DNA of 8,231 nt, from IMG/VR virus record IMGVR_UViG_2671180695_000017; one strand, 5' to 3'. Source of the DNA: a virus (taxonomy: Duplodnaviria > Heunggongvirae > Uroviricota > Caudoviricetes). The position numbers and the translations under genes were made by a program. Shown here one piece after another: positions 2,243 through 7,897 of the stretch (position 1 is the stretch's first letter; every line of letters begins with the position of its first letter). Below the pieces are notes generated by a model. The model worked only from the letters and a program-made list of their open reading frames with translations, was not told where the DNA came from and did no database searches.

Positions 2243-3525
2243 GTGCGGGTATTACTTCGACCTGTTCTGGTACCGGAACTCGGGCTGGTGATCGTTAAGC
2301 CGGGCCGTGAATCCATGCCGGTATTCCACAATACCCGGGTACTGGTGGAGCCGGAACCGAAAAGCATGCGTAATCTGTCGTCCGGGGTCGTTCCTGCCGT
2401 TCGCCAGCCGCTGGCGGAGGATAAATCATTACTGCCATTTTTCAGCGACGAACGAGTGATTCGTGCTGCTGGTGGCGCTGGCGCATTGTCTGACTGGTTA
2501 CTGCGCCATGTTAAATCCTGCCAGTGGCCACACGGCGATTATCACCACAGTGAAACCGTCATTCACCGTTATGGTACCGGCGCAATGGTGTTGTGCTGGC
2601 ACTGCGACAACCAGCTGCGCGACCAGACCTCCGAATCACTCGGGCAACTTGCTCACCAAAACCTGTTTGCATGGATGATTGACGTCATACGCCATGCAAT
2701 GAATGGCTCGCAGGAACGGGAATTATCGCTGGCTGAATTATCCTGGTGGGCGGTCCGCAATCAGGTGGCGGACGCGCTACCGGAAGCGGTATTACGTCAG
2801 GTACCGGCGCAATGGTGTTGTGCTGGCACTGCGACAACCAGCTGCGCGACCAGACCTCCGAATCACTCGGGCAACTTGCTCACCAAAACCTGTCTGCATG
2901 GATGATTGACGTCATACTCCATGCAATGATTGGCTCGCAGGAACGGGAATTATCGCTGGCTGAATTATCCTGGTGGGCGGTCCGCAATCAGGTGGCGGAC
3001 GCGCTACCGGAAGCGGTATTACGTCGTTCGCTGGGGTTGCGTGCGGAAAAAATCCGCTCAATGTACCGTGAAAGCGACATCGTACCGGGAGAGCAGACCG
3101 CCACCAGCATACTGAAGCAGCGCACAAAAAATCTTGCGCCGCTGCCTCACGCCCACCAGCAAAACCCGCCACAGGAAAAGACGGTGGTCAGCATTGCCGT
3201 TGATCCGGAGTCACCGGCTCAGTATCTCCAGCGCCAGAAATCACAACGGGAAGAGATGCCTGTATACACGCGTTGGGTAAAAACGCAGAAATGCATGACG
3301 TGTGGCAATCAGGCAGATGATCCGCATCACATCATTGGTCATGGACTGGGAGGGATGGGAACAAAGGCTGATGATTTGTTTGTTATTCCGCTGTGCCGTA
3401 AATGCCATAGCGAACTACACGCCGGGGTAAAAGATTTTGAAGAAAAACACGGCAGCCAGCTGTTGTTGCTGATTCGTTTTTTAATGCACGCGAGAAATTC
3501 GGGTGTTTTGAAGTGGAAAGCATAA
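2243..3525 (+). pseudogene. YbcO-like (DUF1364-type) zinc-binding putative nuclease gene with N-terminal extension, frame-disrupted by a 227-bp tandem duplication
   Basis: GTG at 2243 with GGAGG at 2234-2238. The frame-2 ORF 2243..2905 and the frame-1 ORF 2746..3525 encode the same ~75-aa stretch (GTGAMVLCWHCDNQLRDQTSESLGQLAHQNL...AVRNQVADALPEAVLR) because 2573-2799 is repeated at 2800-3026 (227 nt, equal to 2 mod 3). Removing one copy gives a single continuous 351-codon ORF ending at 3525. The C-terminus (CMTCGNQADDPHHIIGHG...IPLCRKCHSELH) has a CxxC...HH...CxxCH motif and sits directly upstream of rusA, as ybcO does in DLP12. Confidence 0.55.
2573..3026 (+). repeat. Tandem direct duplication, 2 x 227 bp, 3 mismatches between copies
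   Basis: Direct comparison: 2573-2799 and 2800-3026 are identical except three substitutions (ctgtTtgc vs ctgtCtgc; atacGcc vs atacTcc; atgaAtgg vs atgaTtgg). Junction ...attacgtc|ag|gtaccgg. Confidence 0.9.
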
Positions 3526-3906
3526 ATGACTGAACGCATAGAATTTGTTTTGCCTTACCCGCCAACGGTGAACACTTACTGGCGTCGTCGTGGCAGCACA
3601 TATTTTGTATCAAAAGCCGGGGAGCGTTATCGCCGGGCAGTGGCGCTTATTGTTCGCCAGCAGCGGCTGAAATTAAGCCTGTCCGGAAGGTTGGCAATAA
3701 AAATTATTGCAGAACCACCGGATAAGCGCCGCCGTGACCTGGACAATATTCTGAAAGCGCCGCTGGATGCGCTGACGCATGCGGGGTTGCTAATGGACGA
3801 TGAGCAGTTTGATGAAATCAATATCGTTCGTGCTCAGCCAGTATCTGGTGGACGTCTGGGGGTGAAGATTTACCCCATAATGCTTGAAGGGCAGGTCAAA
3901 AAATGA
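3526..3906 (+). CDS. rusA: RusA-family Holliday junction resolvase
   Basis: 126-aa protein with PPDKRRRDLDNILKAPLDALTHAGLLMDDEQ and GGRLGV, matching the conserved RusA core as I recall it for E. coli RusA ([23 protein letters not shown]...DD...GGRL). The ATG overlaps the upstream stop (TAAATG). Confidence 0.85.
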   Translation: MTERIEFVLPYPPTVNTYWRRRGSTYFVSKAGERYRRAVALIVRQQRLKLSLSGRLAIKIIAEPPDKRRRDLDNILKAPLDALTHAGLLMDDEQFDEINIVRAQPVSGGRLGVKIYPIMLEGQVKK

Positions 3907-4724
3907 AACTGGAAGATTTACCGAAATACTACTCCCCAAAATCCCCCGGCCTGACTGATGCATCGGCCTCAACGTCGAAAGATGCGCTGAGTATCACTGA
4001 TGTGATGGCCGCGCAGGGCATGACACCGAATCGGGCTGAGATGGGGTTTTCTGCGTTCCTTGGGAAAATGGGCATTAGTATGAATGACAGAGAGCGGGCA
4101 ACAGAATTGCTGACAGAATATGCACTCAGTCGGTGTGATCGCGTGGCGGCGTTAAGAAAACTCCCGGCAGAAATAAAACCGGTAGTGATGCGCATTATGG
4201 CTTCGTACGCTTTTGAGGATTATGCCCGCAGCGCAGCGAGTAAAAAGCAGTGCCCTTGTTGCTATGGGGAAAAATTTATTGAAAGCGTAGTTTTTACAAA
4301 CAAGGTCCAGTATCCGGATGGTAAGCCGCCGGTATGGGCAAAGTGTACGAAAGGTGTGTATCCGTCTTACTGGGAAGAATGGAAAAAAGTCAGGGAGGTG
4401 GTAAAAGTTGCCTGTCCGGAGTGTGGCGGAAAGGGTGAGGTTTCCACCGCCTGTAAGGATTGCCGTGGGCGTGGTGTCGCCATTCATCGTGAAGAGTCGG
4501 TAAAACGTGGTATGCCTGTTATCAGAGACTGCCAGCGTTGTGGTGGTCGTGGCTGTGAAAGACTACCATCAACGGAGGCATTTAATGCCATATGCAAAGT
4601 GACGAGTGCTATCACGCTTGATACGTGGAAAAAATCAGTGAAACGCTTTTACGATACGTTGGTGGTTCGGTTTGACATTGAAGAGGCATGGGCGGAGCGG
4701 CAGTTAAAGAGGGTAACGCGATAG
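3903..4724 (+). CDS. Putative late-gene antiterminator (Q-like) with DnaJ-type CxxCxGxG zinc-finger repeats
   Basis: Position is diagnostic: directly after rusA (ATGA overlap) and directly before a promoter that matches lambda PR' through its -10 and initial transcribed region. The protein carries CPCC plus three CxxCxGxG repeats (CPECGGKG, CKDCRGRG, CQRCGGRG). The N-terminus resembles what I recall of Qin-prophage Q homologues, but that recollection is not secure. Confidence 0.55.
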   Translation: MKLEDLPKYYSPKSPGLTDASASTSKDALSITDVMAAQGMTPNRAEMGFSAFLGKMGISMNDRERATELLTEYALSRCDRVAALRKLPAEIKPVVMRIMASYAFEDYARSAASKKQCPCCYGEKFIESVVFTNKVQYPDGKPPVWAKCTKGVYPSYWEEWKKVREVVKVACPECGGKGEVSTACKDCRGRGVAIHREESVKRGMPVIRDCQRCGGRGCERLPSTEAFNAICKVTSAITLDTWKKSVKRFYDTLVVRFDIEEAWAERQLKRVTR

Positions 4725-4729
4725 TGTTG

Positions 4730-4770
4730 TTGATTTTTCCCGAATCTGTGGTAAATTTGCTCTAACGATG
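4730..4770 (+). promoter_or_regulatory. Late promoter PR'-like with sigma70-dependent pause element (likely Q-utilisation region)
   Basis: TTGATT (4730-4735), 16-nt spacer, TAAATT (4752-4757), then AACGATGGG (4764-4772). The stretch GGTAAATTTGCTCTAACGATGGG closely parallels lambda PR' as I recall it (GGTAAATTTGACTCAACGATGGG), including the -10-like AACGAT in the initial transcribed region. Confidence 0.5.
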
Positions 4771-4805
4771 GGCGTTTTATGCCTGACGTTAGAAGATTTT
4801 TTACA

Positions 4806-4830
4806 CCCCGCCGCCTGGCGGGTTTTTTAT
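4806..4830 (+). terminator. tR'-like intrinsic terminator downstream of the late promoter
   Basis: Stem CCCGCC / GGCGGG (4807-4812 pairing with 4817-4822), GCCT loop, followed by TTTTTT (4823-4828). Lies ~45-65 nt downstream of the predicted late start, so a short terminated transcript is expected without Q. Confidence 0.6.
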
Positions 4831-4950
4831 GACTGAAATCGCGTCAGTACAGTAAACGCGCTGGTGGCGGTGAATACCTGTCTTTCAGCTTGCTGGCTTT
4901 TTCGACAAGAGTTATTGGTGTGTCACGTTAACCGGAAAAGGGAAAAAGAC

Positions 4951-5148
4951 ATGCTAAAACAGCAGGATATGACAGAAACCGCCAGAGTAGTGTTTAATGA
5001 ATTAAGCGTTACCGAACCGGCGACAGTCGGGGAGATTGCACAGAATACTTACCTTTCACGCGAACGCTGCCAGTTAATACTGACCCAGCTGGTTATGGCG
5101 GGTCTGGCAGACTATCAGTTCGGTTGTTACAGACGCCTTCCGCAGTGA
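4951..5148 (+). CDS. Small putative winged-helix DNA-binding protein (65 aa)
   Basis: ATG at 4951 with AAGGG SD about 8 nt upstream. I prefer this over the tracked GTG at 4864, which has no SD. The stretch TVGEIAQNTYLSRERCQLILTQLVMAGL looks like a helix-turn-helix or winged-helix recognition region. First gene of the Q-dependent late transcript. Confidence 0.45.
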   Translation: MLKQQDMTETARVVFNELSVTEPATVGEIAQNTYLSRERCQLILTQLVMAGLADYQFGCYRRLPQ

Positions 5149-5160
5149 AGGCTTTTTTAT
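5135..5160 (+). terminator. Intrinsic terminator overlapping the stop codon of the small wHTH gene
   Basis: Stem GCCTTC / GAAGGC (5135-5140 pairing with 5147-5152), loop CGCAGT, then TTTTTT (5153-5158). The TGA stop (5146-5148) lies inside the hairpin. Confidence 0.5.
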
Positions 5161-5175
5161 TTGTGGTAAATGGGC

Positions 5176-5206
5176 GGCTGGTGGGTGTTAGGGGCACCCA
5201 CCAGCC
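5176..5206. repeat. Perfect 12-bp inverted repeat with 7-nt spacer in the methyltransferase leader
   Basis: GGCTGGTGGGTG ttagggg CACCCACCAGCC, with no T-run after it. Two further hairpins follow (5248-5266, stem CTGCTTT/AAAGCAG; 5271-5289, stem AGCCT/AGGCT) before the methyltransferase ATG at 5299. Confidence 0.7.
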
Positions 5207-5298: not shown

Positions 5299-6348
5299 AT
5301 GCTTAATACTGTAAAAATATCCAGTTGTGAGTTAATCAACGCCGACTGCCTGGAATTTATCCGGTCGTTACCCGAAAATTCTGTTGACCTGATAGTCACG
5401 GACCCGCCGTACTTTAAAGTGAAGCCTGAGGGCTGGGATAACCAGTGGAAGGGCGACGATGATTACCTGAAGTGGCTGGACCAGTGTCTGGCGCAGTTCT
5501 GGCGGGTGCTGAAACCTGCCGGAAGTCTTTACCTGTTCTGTGGTCATCGCCTGGCATCTGATATCGAAATCATGATGCGTGAACGCTTCAGTGTGCTGAA
5601 CCATATTATCTGGGCGAAGCCGTCCGGACGCTGGAACGGATGCAACAAGGAAAGCCTGCGGGCGTATTTCCCCGCCACAGAGCGCATTCTGTTCGCGGAA
5701 CATTATCAGGGGCCGTATCGTCCGAAAGATGCCGGGTATGCGGCGAAGGGCAGTGCACTGAAACAGCATGTGATGGCCCCGCTGATTTCTTACTTTCGTG
5801 ATGCGCGCGCGGCCCTGGGGATAACGGCAAAACAGATTGCAGATGCCACAGGAAAGAAAAACATGGTGTCGCACTGGTTCAGTGCCAGTCAGTGGCAGCT
5901 ACCGAACGAAAGCGATTATCTGAAATTACAGTCGCTGTTTGCCCGGGTGGCAGAAGAGAAACATCAGCGCGGTGAACTGGAAAAGCCCCACCACCAGCTG
6001 GTGGATACGTATACGTCACTGAACCGGCAGTATGTGGAGCTGCAGAGTGAATATAAGCATCTGCGGCGGTATTTTGGTGTGACGGCGCAGGTGCCGTACA
6101 CGGATGTGTGGACACATAAACCGGTGCAGTTCTATCCCGGGAAACATCCGTGCGAAAAACCGGCAGAAATGCTGCAGCAGATAATCAGCGCAAGCAGTCG
6201 TCCGGGTGACCTGGTTGCAGATTTTTTTATGGGCTCAGGTTCAACGGTAAAAGCTGCACTGGCGCTCGGGCGTCGTGCGATTGGCGTTGAACTGGAGACC
6301 GGACGTTTTGAGCAGACAGTCAGGGAAGTTCAGGATTTAATCGTTTGA
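5299..6348 (+). CDS. Orphan DNA methyltransferase, beta-class (DPPY motif IV N-terminal, FxGxG motif I C-terminal); probably N6-adenine-specific
   Basis: DPPYF at residues 35-39 (nt 5401-5415) and FFMGSGST near the C-terminus (around nt 6224-6247), in the circularly permuted order typical of beta-class amino-methyltransferases. No restriction endonuclease gene is adjacent. Confidence 0.85.
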   Translation: MLNTVKISSCELINADCLEFIRSLPENSVDLIVTDPPYFKVKPEGWDNQWKGDDDYLKWLDQCLAQFWRVLKPAGSLYLFCGHRLASDIEIMMRERFSVLNHIIWAKPSGRWNGCNKESLRAYFPATERILFAEHYQGPYRPKDAGYAAKGSALKQHVMAPLISYFRDARAALGITAKQIADATGKKNMVSHWFSASQWQLPNESDYLKLQSLFARVAEEKHQRGELEKPHHQLVDTYTSLNRQYVELQSEYKHLRRYFGVTAQVPYTDVWTHKPVQFYPGKHPCEKPAEMLQQIISASSRPGDLVADFFMGSGSTVKAALALGRRAIGVELETGRFEQTVREVQDLIV

Positions 6349-6397: not shown

Positions 6398-6473
6398 GGC
6401 CCTTTAGCTCAGTGGTGAGAGCGAGCGACTCATAATCGCCAGGTCGCTGGTTCAAATCCAGCAAGGGCCACCA
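6398..6473 (+). tRNA. tRNA with CAU anticodon, closest to E. coli tRNA-Ile2 (lysidine type, reads AUA); phage ileZ-like
   Basis: Manual cloverleaf: acceptor GGCCCTT/AAGGGCC, D-arm GCTC-AGTGGTGA-GAGC, anticodon loop CTCATAA (CAT at 6431-6433), T-arm GCTGG-TTCAAAT-CCAGC, discriminator A plus encoded CCA. Very similar to E. coli ileX as I recall it. Position 27-43 is an A-C mismatch. Confidence 0.85.
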
Positions 6474-6480
6474 TCACAAA

Positions 6481-6560
6481 CCGCCATTAGCTTATCAGGA
6501 AGAGCAGACGACACGATAACAGGGTTGTTGGTGCGGGGGCGGGTCCCCGATGGCGGTCCA
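6481..6560 (+). pseudogene. Degenerate tRNA-like element between the two tRNAs (possible decayed argN-type tRNA)
   Basis: A 7-bp acceptor-like stem (CCGCCAT 6481-6487 pairing with ATGGCGG 6550-6556) followed by TCCA, a plausible D-arm (GCTT-ATCAGGAA-GAGC) and a 5-bp GC T-like stem (6534-6538 / 6545-6549). But the T-loop is 6 nt (GCGGGT, not TTCRANY) and I could not fold a canonical anticodon arm. Confidence 0.25.
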
Positions 6561-6573
6561 TTATCGGTATTCA

Positions 6574-6650
6574 GCGTTGTTAGCTCAGCCGGACAGAGCA
6601 ATTGCCTTCTAAGCAATCGGTCACTGGTTCGAATCCAGTACAGCGCGCCA
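6574..6650 (+). tRNA. tRNA-Arg (anticodon UCU, reads AGA/AGG); phage argO/argN-like
   Basis: Manual cloverleaf: acceptor GCGTTGT/ACAGCGC (one G-U pair), D-arm GCTC-AGCCGGACA-GAGC, anticodon stem ATTGC/GCAAT with loop CTTCTAA (TCT at 6608-6610), T-arm ACTGG-TTCGAAT-CCAGT, discriminator G plus CCA. Resembles E. coli argU. Confidence 0.85.
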
Positions 6651-7281: not shown

Positions 7282-7505
7282 CCGGGTATCAGTTAGCGGG
7301 AGAAATTTTTAAATACTTCACAATTCAGGCGGTTGATTGTTGTCTGGTTTGCGGGGAGTTTGTTAAAAGAAACTGGCATGGTGAATCCCCCTGTGCGGAG
7401 GGGCAATCAGCGAGTAGGTATATGGGATAATCGCGGATTCAGGTGCTGGTACTGAATTCACCGGGAGGCACCCGGCACCATGCAATGGCACATAGCGCCA
7501 CTCTC

Positions 7506-7535
7506 CAGCCCCTCTCCGGAGGGGCTGTTTATATT
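7506..7535 (+). terminator. Strong intrinsic terminator (+ strand) between the convergent cargo ORFs
   Basis: Perfect 9-bp GC-rich stem CAGCCCCTC / GAGGGGCTG (7506-7514 pairing with 7519-7527), TCCG tetraloop, followed by TTTATATTGATTTT. The opposite strand lacks a T-tract after the hairpin, so it is oriented to stop + strand transcripts. Confidence 0.55.
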
Positions 7536-7561
7536 GATTTTGTCAGATGTGAGTAAACTCC

Positions 7562-7897
7562 TTATGGACTTTGTTGTTTTAGTCCATAAGGACATATTTG
7601 CAGAGTGCAACGGTTATTAAAGCATTCATTCAATACGTTATCTGTATTTGTAGGGCATTCCTGGCTGTTTTTGATTAAATTCCAGAATGTTTTATTGAAT
7701 GGTACTACGTTGTAAATGGTTACAGGTAGCACTTTGTTATTGAGCATGATGCCTGTGTGAGTCAGTGTAAATATACTTTCAGGAGGTAAGAAAGCATCCG
7801 ATTGATACCAGATTATTAATTTTATTTTACTCCATATGACTGAAAAAGATATTCCGCATGATGGCTGGATAACTGTATCAATCACAATCCACTTCAT
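7562..7897 (-). CDS. Hypothetical cargo protein (111 aa) with C-terminal cysteine cluster, encoded antisense to the late operon
   Basis: ATG (7895-7897 on the minus strand) preceded by AAGGA with a 5-nt spacer. C-terminal C-x10-C-x4-C-x4-C pattern ([23 protein letters not shown]). The last 9 codons and the TAA stop lie inside a perfect 10-bp hairpin (7561-7590). About 33% GC. Confidence 0.45.

Follow-up and report, generated by a model that had tools for sequence, protein, structure and literature searches.

The sequence that directly follows the antiterminator gene of the analysed window (the whole stretch of 8,231 nucleotides) is very probably a Q-dependent late-gene control cassette of a lambdoid prophage with a Q protein of the lambda family, comprising the late promoter PR' with its Q-utilisation site and the terminator tR'. 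The element is of an ordinary, well-understood kind and is unusually well preserved here. Dependence of late transcription on Q is predicted from the sequence. The gene content identifies the window as part of a lambdoid prophage. On the plus strand, the genes DUF977, QueH, hok/sok, a split DUF968 gene and RusA precede a 273-aa ORF, which is followed by a 65-aa winged-helix-like ORF, a DNA methyltransferase, two tRNAs and an island. The 273-aa ORF is the Q gene:

3903-4724, plus strand: Q antiterminator gene of the lambda-Q family, 273 aa, ORF intact and of full length

Its product is assigned to Pfam family PF03589 (E 2.5e-50), with an additional sub-threshold match to DnaJ_CXXCXGXG, and is 30% identical to lambda Q (BLASTP, E 7e-37). 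The best PDB match is 7ubm, the lambda Q loading complex (E 2.2e-38), and the alignment covers residues 1-113 and 182-273. The N-terminal segment that forms the nozzle in lambda Q aligns well, and the C-terminal zinc-ribbon/DNA-binding part is also covered. Residues 114-181 represent a 68-aa insertion in the zinc 'arm' and carry two extra CxxC motifs. Since this arm contacts DNA and sigma, Q may load with a geometry other than that in lambda.

The Q stop codon occupies positions 4722-4724, and the putative -35 hexamer begins five bases past it, at 4730. The following promoter-proximal elements were recognised:

4730-4735, plus strand: predicted PR' -35 hexamer TTGATT, in register with lambda TTGACT and with TTTACT/TTGCAA at homologous loci
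4736-4751, plus strand: spacer TTTCCCGAATCTGTGG, 16 nt, candidate Q-binding element, with an extended -10 TG at 4749-4750 and ending in TGG
4752-4757, plus strand: PR' -10 hexamer TAAATT, identical to that of lambda
4757-4762, plus strand: TTGCTC at the position of lambda TTGACT, TTG alone being kept
4764-4772, plus strand: AACGATGGG, with the predicted start (+1) at A4764 and the predicted pause element, AACGAT (+1 to +6) and GGG (+7 to +9), identical to lambda
4779-4781, plus strand: predicted pause position, ATG at +16 to +18, in register with lambda

A sigma-70 promoter directly after Q is predicted from its register with lambda and with 73 homologous loci, and transcription would begin at A4764, a position placed by register with the mapped start of lambda. 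The lambda PR' promoter has the structure TTGACT-17-TAAATT-TGACTC-AACGATGGG (NC_001416), and TGCTCT lies between the -10 hexamer and +1 in the window. The first-pass annotation had described this region as closely parallel to lambda PR' and proposed an alignment with it. When the alignment was made, the -10 hexamer and positions +1 to +9 proved identical, but the likeness goes no further than 19 of the 23 positions shared between the plus-strand 23-mer GGTAAATTTGCTCTAACGATGGG at 4750-4772 and the lambda 23-mer GGTAAATTTGACTCAACGATGGG (NC_001416). All four mismatches fall between the -10 hexamer and +1, and because of these four differences a search of the window for the lambda 23-mer with up to three mismatches returned no match. 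The pattern GGTAAATTTGNNNNAACGATGGG, in which the four differing positions are free and 19 bases are specified, occurs once in the window and in none of 200 dinucleotide shuffles, while AACGATGGG alone occurs once versus 0.06 expected. The promoter scores 8/12 against the consensus, with a 16-nt spacer, despite the TG at -15/-14, and a generic promoter scan of the window did not call the combination TTGATT/16 nt/TAAATT.

The hexamer AACGAT and the adjoining GGG are predicted to constitute a sigma-dependent pause element. In lambda, it is the -10-like element at +1 to +6 that makes the polymerase pause at about 16 nt (PMC4604602). The core pause consensus G-10/Y-1/G+1, cited in the same work (PMC4604602), would be fitted by the residues at +8 (G), +17 (T) and +18 (G), and all 25 'long-class' leaders have the T at +17. 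The element TTGACT, which is used by lambda Q, is half kept in the window as TTGCTC. Nickels et al. (2002) reportedly dealt with the role of TTGACT in the repositioning of sigma region 4. In the Q-loading complex of lambda, TTGACT is the place where sigma region 4 gets repositioned (PMC9388147), and alignment with lambda weakly suggests that TTGCTC may take part in the same step.

The promoter is followed by a terminator:

4807-4828, plus strand: tR' intrinsic terminator, stem CCCGCC/GGCGGG at 4807-4822, loop GCCT, T6 at 4823-4828

The stem consists of six base pairs, all GC, closed by a 4-nt loop. It spans +44 to +59 and the U-tract ends at +65, which agrees with the first-pass placement of a terminator some 45-65 nt downstream of the promoter. 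The stem is kept, with changes, in the relatives Evi and Stx2_EH1910. A weak 'terminator-like' match at 4758-4774 is not a terminator but a portion of the region that forms the leader hairpin.

The same layout was found in a survey of 80 loci encoding lambda-family Q proteins, taken from one-genome-per-species contigs of other enterobacterial species and covering Q identities of 31-97%. A -10-like hexamer followed after 5-8 nt by AACGATGGG (with at most three mismatches) is present in 73 of the 80 loci, the AACGATGGG-type element starting 37-89 nt after the Q stop codon. The exact AACGATGGG is found in 55 of the 80, and the -10-like AACGAT noticed in the first-pass annotation does occur in the window at +1 to +6 in the lambda form. 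An intrinsic terminator was detected in 70 of the 73 loci, without exception beyond the promoter and pause element, and in 63 of these 70 the U-tract ends at +53 to +71 (median 61.5). A short distance between promoter and terminator is thus the norm of the family and lambda (+194) is the outlier, so that the closeness of the terminator, which had been singled out as striking, is typical. The promoter and pause elements are conserved across genera well beyond neutral expectation, and these non-coding blocks are more conserved than the Q protein itself. It is hardly credible that the hairpin and T-run merely end the early-right transcript after Q and that the likeness to lambda PR' arose by chance. 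Lying about 80 nt past the Q stop codon, the terminator would indeed halt any unmodified polymerase arriving from upstream, but the absence of the 19-base pattern from all shuffles, the recurrence of the same element after Q in 73 of 80 independent loci and the constant position of the terminator downstream of promoter and pause element argue against coincidence.

E. coli UTI89 carries the 251 bases surrounding the site with 100% identity. Used as a query, this segment gave whole or partial matches in 1896 of the 5426 complete E. coli genomes, at least 80% of it being covered in 1423. In UTI89 the identical cassette is followed by the same small ORF and methylase as in the window, then by three tRNAs, a holin, a lysozyme, an Rz-type lysis protein and a terminase, a gene order indicating that the cassette heads the late operon. 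The 3.7-kb stretch of UTI89 from the 3' end of Q into the holin gene contains 16 terminator-like sites versus 3.5 +/- 1.8 expected, and the lysis genes would need processive antitermination to be reached past these sites. In phage Stx2_EH1910, a Q protein 94% identical to that of the window and the same cassette are located upstream of stx2A/B. The assignment of a lambda-type late promoter made in the first pass is supported by these two genomes, by the PF03589 Q gene ending 5 nt upstream and by the layout common to 73 of the 80 loci.

Signs of decay are present in the prophage of the window. The DUF968 gene, located two positions upstream of Q with RusA between them, is split by a 227-bp tandem duplication, and a tRNA remnant is the second such sign; Q may therefore never be expressed in this genome. 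These features, together with the foreign island after the tRNAs, could mean that the cassette is an inert relic, which a decaying prophage retains through recent shared ancestry and which no longer works as a Q-responsive switch. This is quite unlikely, since the Q ORF is intact and of full length, the cassette is fully identical to that of UTI89, where the lysis and terminase region is complete, and its elements are conserved across genera in the manner described above. Synthesis of the short RNA from a PR'-type promoter, moreover, needs no phage factor.

When the loci of the survey are aligned on +1, their spacers fall into discrete types which track the Q subfamily. The core TTTTCCCGAATCTGTG is nearly invariant in about 30 loci of the subfamily with Q proteins of 271-277 aa, to which the Q of the window belongs, and these loci come from many genera, from Escherichia to Erwinia. 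Within this group, the Q proteins share just 50-66% identity and the DNA upstream of the -35 hexamer is unalignable. The spacers of other Q subfamilies carry GTGGCGGAATTTGG, TTCAAAAAnnnTGG or GTTGCCGTTTTTGTG, and TTGAATAAnATTGGG is common to the spacers of lambda and one Pectobacterium locus. The Q-binding element of lambda is 13 bp long, lies between the -35 and -10 hexamers and is contacted by the helix-turn-helix and the zinc-ribbon arm (PMC9388147). Since the spacer is subfamily-specific, positions 4736-4751 may be the cognate Q-binding site, although physical linkage alone could give the same pattern.

By analogy with lambda, where Q loading, the participation of NusA and the exit-channel nozzle are described in PMC9388147 and the pause in PMC4604602, the cassette would operate as follows. 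Host sigma-70 RNA polymerase would start constitutively at about A4764 from TTGATT-16-(TG)TAAATT. Sigma region 2 would then re-bind the non-template AACGAT at +1 to +6, helped by GGG, and this recapture would hold the polymerase at about +16/+17. Without Q, in the lysogen, the polymerase would escape and terminate at 4807-4828, giving RNA ends at 4823-4828 and releasing an RNA of about 65 nt capped by a 5' hairpin made of the pause-element sequence. Upon prophage induction Q would be made, bind the promoter spacer at about 4736-4751 and load together with NusA onto the paused polymerase, forming a nozzle on the RNA-exit channel. The polymerase modified in this way would pass tR' and many later terminators, and transcription would extend through the winged-helix gene, methylase gene and tRNAs to the genes for lysis and morphogenesis. 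Details may differ from lambda at two points, namely the enlarged zinc arm and the half-kept TTGACT element.

The following features lie downstream of the terminator:

4951-5148, plus strand: first downstream gene, 65-aa winged-helix-like protein with a weak TrmB match (E 0.0026)
5135-5158, plus strand: second intrinsic terminator on the predicted late transcript
5299-6348, plus strand: DNA methyltransferase gene (PF01555, E 2.3e-44), in the predicted late transcript
6398-6650, plus strand: tRNA(CAT) and tRNA-Arg(TCT), with a degenerate tRNA-like remnant between them
7347-7536: STnc100 sRNA gene with its own terminator, in the island
7562-7897, minus strand: ORF in the island

The 65-aa protein is annotated in phage phiP27 as a TrmB-family regulator. 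The lysis and morphogenesis genes are outside the window, which ends in the island, and are present after the identical cassette of UTI89. The first-pass proposal that Q action is a precondition for the expression of all that lies downstream is too sweeping, because the island contains a minus-strand ORF and the STnc100 gene with its own terminator.

Phage matches to positions 4600-5000 split at 4807/4808, the first bases of the terminator. Phage Evi has the Q gene, promoter and terminator in common with the window and diverges beyond them, while in phiP27 and many Stx2 phages the similarity takes in the terminator and all that follows it, the Q genes being different; phages with other Q genes match the window from 4807/4808 onward. 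In Stx2_EH2201, a 126-aa Q protein of the PF06530 (phage 21) family is joined to the identical terminator and the module of winged-helix gene, methylase and tRNAs, and its promoter is different and without AACGATGGG. The break of the phage matches at this point indicates that the terminator is a recombination joint between a Q-promoter module and a cargo module. Such a joint fits the independence of Q action from the identity of the terminator.

The RNA predicted to be released at tR' and its parts upstream of the terminator are as follows:

4764-4828, plus strand: leader RNA predicted to end at tR', about 62-65 nt, corresponding to lambda 6S RNA
4763-4791, plus strand: 5'-terminal leader hairpin in the minimum free energy (MFE) fold, outer stem TAACG/CGTTA, inner stem GGGCGT/ATGCCT
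4792-4806, plus strand: linker GAAGATTTTTTACAC, about 16 nt, single-stranded in the fold, A/G-rich then U-rich, adjoining the terminator

The 65-nt RNA folds with -21.9 kcal/mol (z = -2.5; an equally good fold was reached by 2 of 200 shuffles), forming the 5' hairpin, which takes up 4764-4790 of the transcript, the single-stranded linker and the terminator hairpin. The 5' arm of the first hairpin is the RNA copy of the pause element, and its partner CGTT(A) is located downstream, at 4787-4791. Pairing of this kind is common in the family. Among 66 distinct leaders, at least four of the positions +1 to +6 are paired in the MFE fold in 79% versus 28% with a shuffled tail, and a perfect 5-nt complement occurs downstream of the pause element in 35% of leaders versus 3% of shuffled ones. 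In an ungapped alignment (A4) of 25 long-class leaders, 87.8% of the cells are paired versus 30-42% when the partners are slid, and two pairs alone change on both sides. The distance to the complement varies between leader classes, which suggests that complementarity, and not a fixed DNA signal, has been favoured. Compensatory variants are AATGA/TCATT (in two lineages), AACAA/TTGTT and AACGG/CCGTT. When variant pause elements were paired with their own arm or with the consensus arm, their own arm was better in 8 cases and worse in 6, with 6 ties, uncompensated variants thus being about equally frequent. On these sequence comparisons, the leader hairpin is conserved, but statistical proof by covariation is not given by them. 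The 3' arms of the hairpins did not align with MAFFT since their loop lengths differ, and a covariance model built from the long-class leaders did not capture the short class. A leader peptide starting at the ATG inside AACGATGGG (a 22-codon frame running through the terminator) was also considered; the frame is not conserved and was rejected because lambda and many relatives stop after two codons (ATGGGTTAA). Emory, Bouvet and Belasco are said to have found in 1992 that a hairpin at the extreme 5' end stabilises mRNA, and stabilisation of the mRNA is the most economical explanation of the conserved 5' hairpin.

Besides serving the switch, the PR'-tR' RNA of 62-65 nt may act in trans in lysogens as a stable, constitutive, Hfq-binding small RNA, although this is unlikely. 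The precedent is StxS, in which the PR'-tR' transcript of an Stx phage is processed to a 74-nt Hfq-bound sRNA (PMC7547250). The architecture of the leader fits such a role, with the 5' hairpin, the A/G-rich then U-rich linker and the GC terminator with U6; the composition of the linker resembles an Hfq-binding module, and this is only a resemblance. Leader length is held tightly at +53 to +71 across genera, and the cassette or part of it is present in the 1896 E. coli genomes mentioned above. However, the linker is no better conserved than its surroundings, varying among the close relatives Evi, Stx2_EH1910 and L005, and is almost absent from the 'short-class' leaders. No Rfam family matched: a search over 4764-4828 gave no match at the gathering score or at E<=1, the best hits being at the chance level of 11-20 bits, and with lax filters 201 bases gave no match to Esr41, StxS or any other family. 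The exact sequence is in no paper of the literature searched, and a literature search on quuD/quuQ returned nothing relevant. Of the published O157 Hfq-bound orphan sites, two were located in the Sakai genome, neither at PR', which says little about the cassette. Furthermore, the switch alone can explain both the 5' hairpin and the short leader. Likewise doubtful is a broader proposition, that at lambda-family late promoters the leader RNA has itself been selected as a product, being held to 53-71 nt across Enterobacterales and opening with a hairpin whose 5' arm copies the sigma pause element, and that its form of about 65 nt accumulates in E. coli lysogens, uropathogenic strains such as UTI89 included, as a constitutive phage-encoded regulatory RNA analogous to StxS though not related to it in sequence.

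Two known small RNAs were considered as possible forms of the leader RNA and rejected. HnrS (EcOnc10-12) is similar in size, being an EHEC prophage sRNA of 66 nt with an intrinsic terminator end (PMC13502914). However, in Sakai Sp12 it maps to 2234239-2234287, between the endopeptidase and terminase genes, on the strand opposite the late genes and thus antisense to the late operon, and not after Q. In addition, the seed of HnrS must pair with AGAAG, whereas the leader RNA described here contains AGAAG. The Q of Sakai Sp12, also tried as a representative of the same type, belongs to the PF06323 family instead. EcOnc33 (about 71 nt, Sp6) maps to the end of a sialate esterase gene, in antisense orientation, and not to PR'.

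As a late-gene switch, the cassette shares with the PR'/qut/tR' region of lambda the PF03589 Q protein, the hexamer TAAATT and AACGATGGG at +1 to +9, as well as the order of Q gene, promoter, pause element, intrinsic terminator and late genes. The lambda leader also has the same kind of 5' hairpin, formed there by CAACGA/TCGTTG. The two differ in the position of the terminator, which ends at about +194 in lambda and at +65 here, and in the spacer, which is unrelated (TTTCCCGAATCTGTGG here versus TATTGAATAAAATTGGG in lambda) and comprises 16 nt with a TG extension instead of 17 nt. Further differences are TTGCTC in place of lambda TTGACT and the 68-aa zinc-motif insertion in the Q of the window. 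The textbook arrangement of lambda, with its terminator at +194, is thus atypical, the usual one having a leader of about 55-70 nt, a pause-element hairpin and a subfamily-specific spacer. The leader and spacer patterns provide testable pointers to the specificity of Q binding and to a possible role of the leader RNA. The known mechanism is unchanged, and the switch is of a thoroughly known kind.

The cassette marks the late-gene switch of a type of prophage which occurs, whole or partial, in about one third of complete E. coli genomes, and its coordinates are exact enough for the design of reporters and deletions. It is also relevant to toxin control, as the same type of cassette with a 94%-identical Q lies upstream of stx2a in at least one Stx2a phage. 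In one published survey, Stx late promoters were assessed with one reference PR' site, and several prophages were without it (PMC6266700).

Stx phages with a 144-aa Q (933W/Sp5 type) share the logic predicted for the cassette, with a constitutive late promoter, early termination in lysogens, a short RNA as a by-product and toxin or late genes downstream (PMC7547250). In contrast, their Q proteins belong to another family and their promoter sequence is different, with no sequence similarity. For StxS, Hfq binding and trans-regulation have been shown, and it is reported only with the 144-aa Q (PMC7547250); RNase E cuts its 258-nt primary transcript to 74 nt, whereas the primary transcript predicted here is about 65 nt. 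Phages 21 (PF06530) and 82 (PF06323) are functional analogues in which Q loads at a sigma-dependent promoter-proximal pause, although their Q proteins are unrelated to those of the lambda family (PMC9388147).

The mosaic junction of the window lies at 4807-4808 and coincides exactly with the hairpin of the terminator tR'. This terminator and the following module of genes for a winged-helix protein, a methylase and tRNAs are common to the window, Stx2 phages and phiP27. The Stx2 phages and phiP27 that share them carry Q genes of a different family (PF06530).

Among the 80 loci of other species carrying Q homologues (L005-L084), the first ~130 nt past the Q stop codon fall into at least two leader length classes, the short one with the hairpin AACGATGGGTTAnTGCCTTCGTT and the long one with the hairpin AACGATGGGCATTGTATGTTCAnCGTT. 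A few terminator types recur in this set, and they are combined variously with the Q subfamilies. Two loci, L052 and L069, lack a cassette immediately after Q. In L052 the leader model matches in full about 1.8 kb further on, and an insertion is the suggested explanation.

The zinc-ribbon arm of the window Q contains a 68-aa insertion (residues 114-181) relative to lambda Q, which adds two CxxC motifs, making four in total, in a DnaJ-like CxxCxGxG pattern, and is covered by no solved structure. Homologues with lengths of 260-277 aa are widespread in Enterobacterales; a number of these go under the erroneous name 'chaperone protein DnaJ'.

Other features of the window.
722-1408, + strand: homologue of QueH, epoxyqueuosine reductase (PF02677, E 1e-65)
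1476-1801: hok/sok type I toxin-antitoxin locus (sok RNA match to RF01794, 120 bits; Hok-type ORF)
2573-3025: tandem duplication of 227 bp (copies 2573-2798 and 2800-3025, 99% identity between copies)
5162-5178: TTGTGGTAAATGGGCGG, directly past the second terminator
6474-6573: tRNA-like remnant between tRNA(CAT) and tRNA-Arg(TCT), with acceptor-like ends ACCGCCAT...ATGGCGGTCCA
7347-7536, + strand: full-length match to the STnc100 prophage sRNA family (RF02076, 132 bits)

The block TTGTGGTAAATGGGCGG, which occurs in the Stx2 phage Stx2_EH1910 as well, resembles the -10 block of the predicted late promoter PR' (TGTGGTAAAT) fused straight to GGGCG, as though PR' had lost the 13 nt holding the pause element. 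Possible readings are a leftover from an earlier junction, a promoter of low strength, or a chance resemblance.

Further downstream, the STnc100 match includes its own terminator (7506-7527). According to a 2026 preprint, the STnc100 family is related to the PasD sRNAs, which are found near PF03589 Q genes. In the identical-cassette locus of UTI89 (L004), the region 9000-12700, extending from the 3' end of the Q gene into the holin gene, is strongly enriched in terminator-like sites (16 versus 3.5 ± 1.8 expected). These include repeated AGCCCCTCTCCGGAGGGGCT hairpins, resembling the hairpin that ends STnc100 in the window.

ARAGORN called no tRNA for the remnant at 6474-6573. The corresponding position in UTI89 is occupied by an intact tRNA-Arg. 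The adjacent tRNA(CAT) is annotated in related records as tRNA-Ile (ileZ type).

Upstream of Q, the tandem duplication is located within a DUF968/ydfU-like gene. Its length of 227 bp is not divisible by 3, so that it splits the gene into two overlapping ORFs (2243-2905 and 2746-3525). UTI89 has a single intact 1047-nt gene at this position. The disruption points to ongoing decay of the prophage. The Hok-type ORF of the hok/sok locus has the C-terminus ...MKQQKAMLIALIVICLTVIVTALVTRKDLCEVRLRTGQTEVAVFTAYEPEE. The QueH homologue belongs to the early region of the prophage; UTI89 has other genes at its position.
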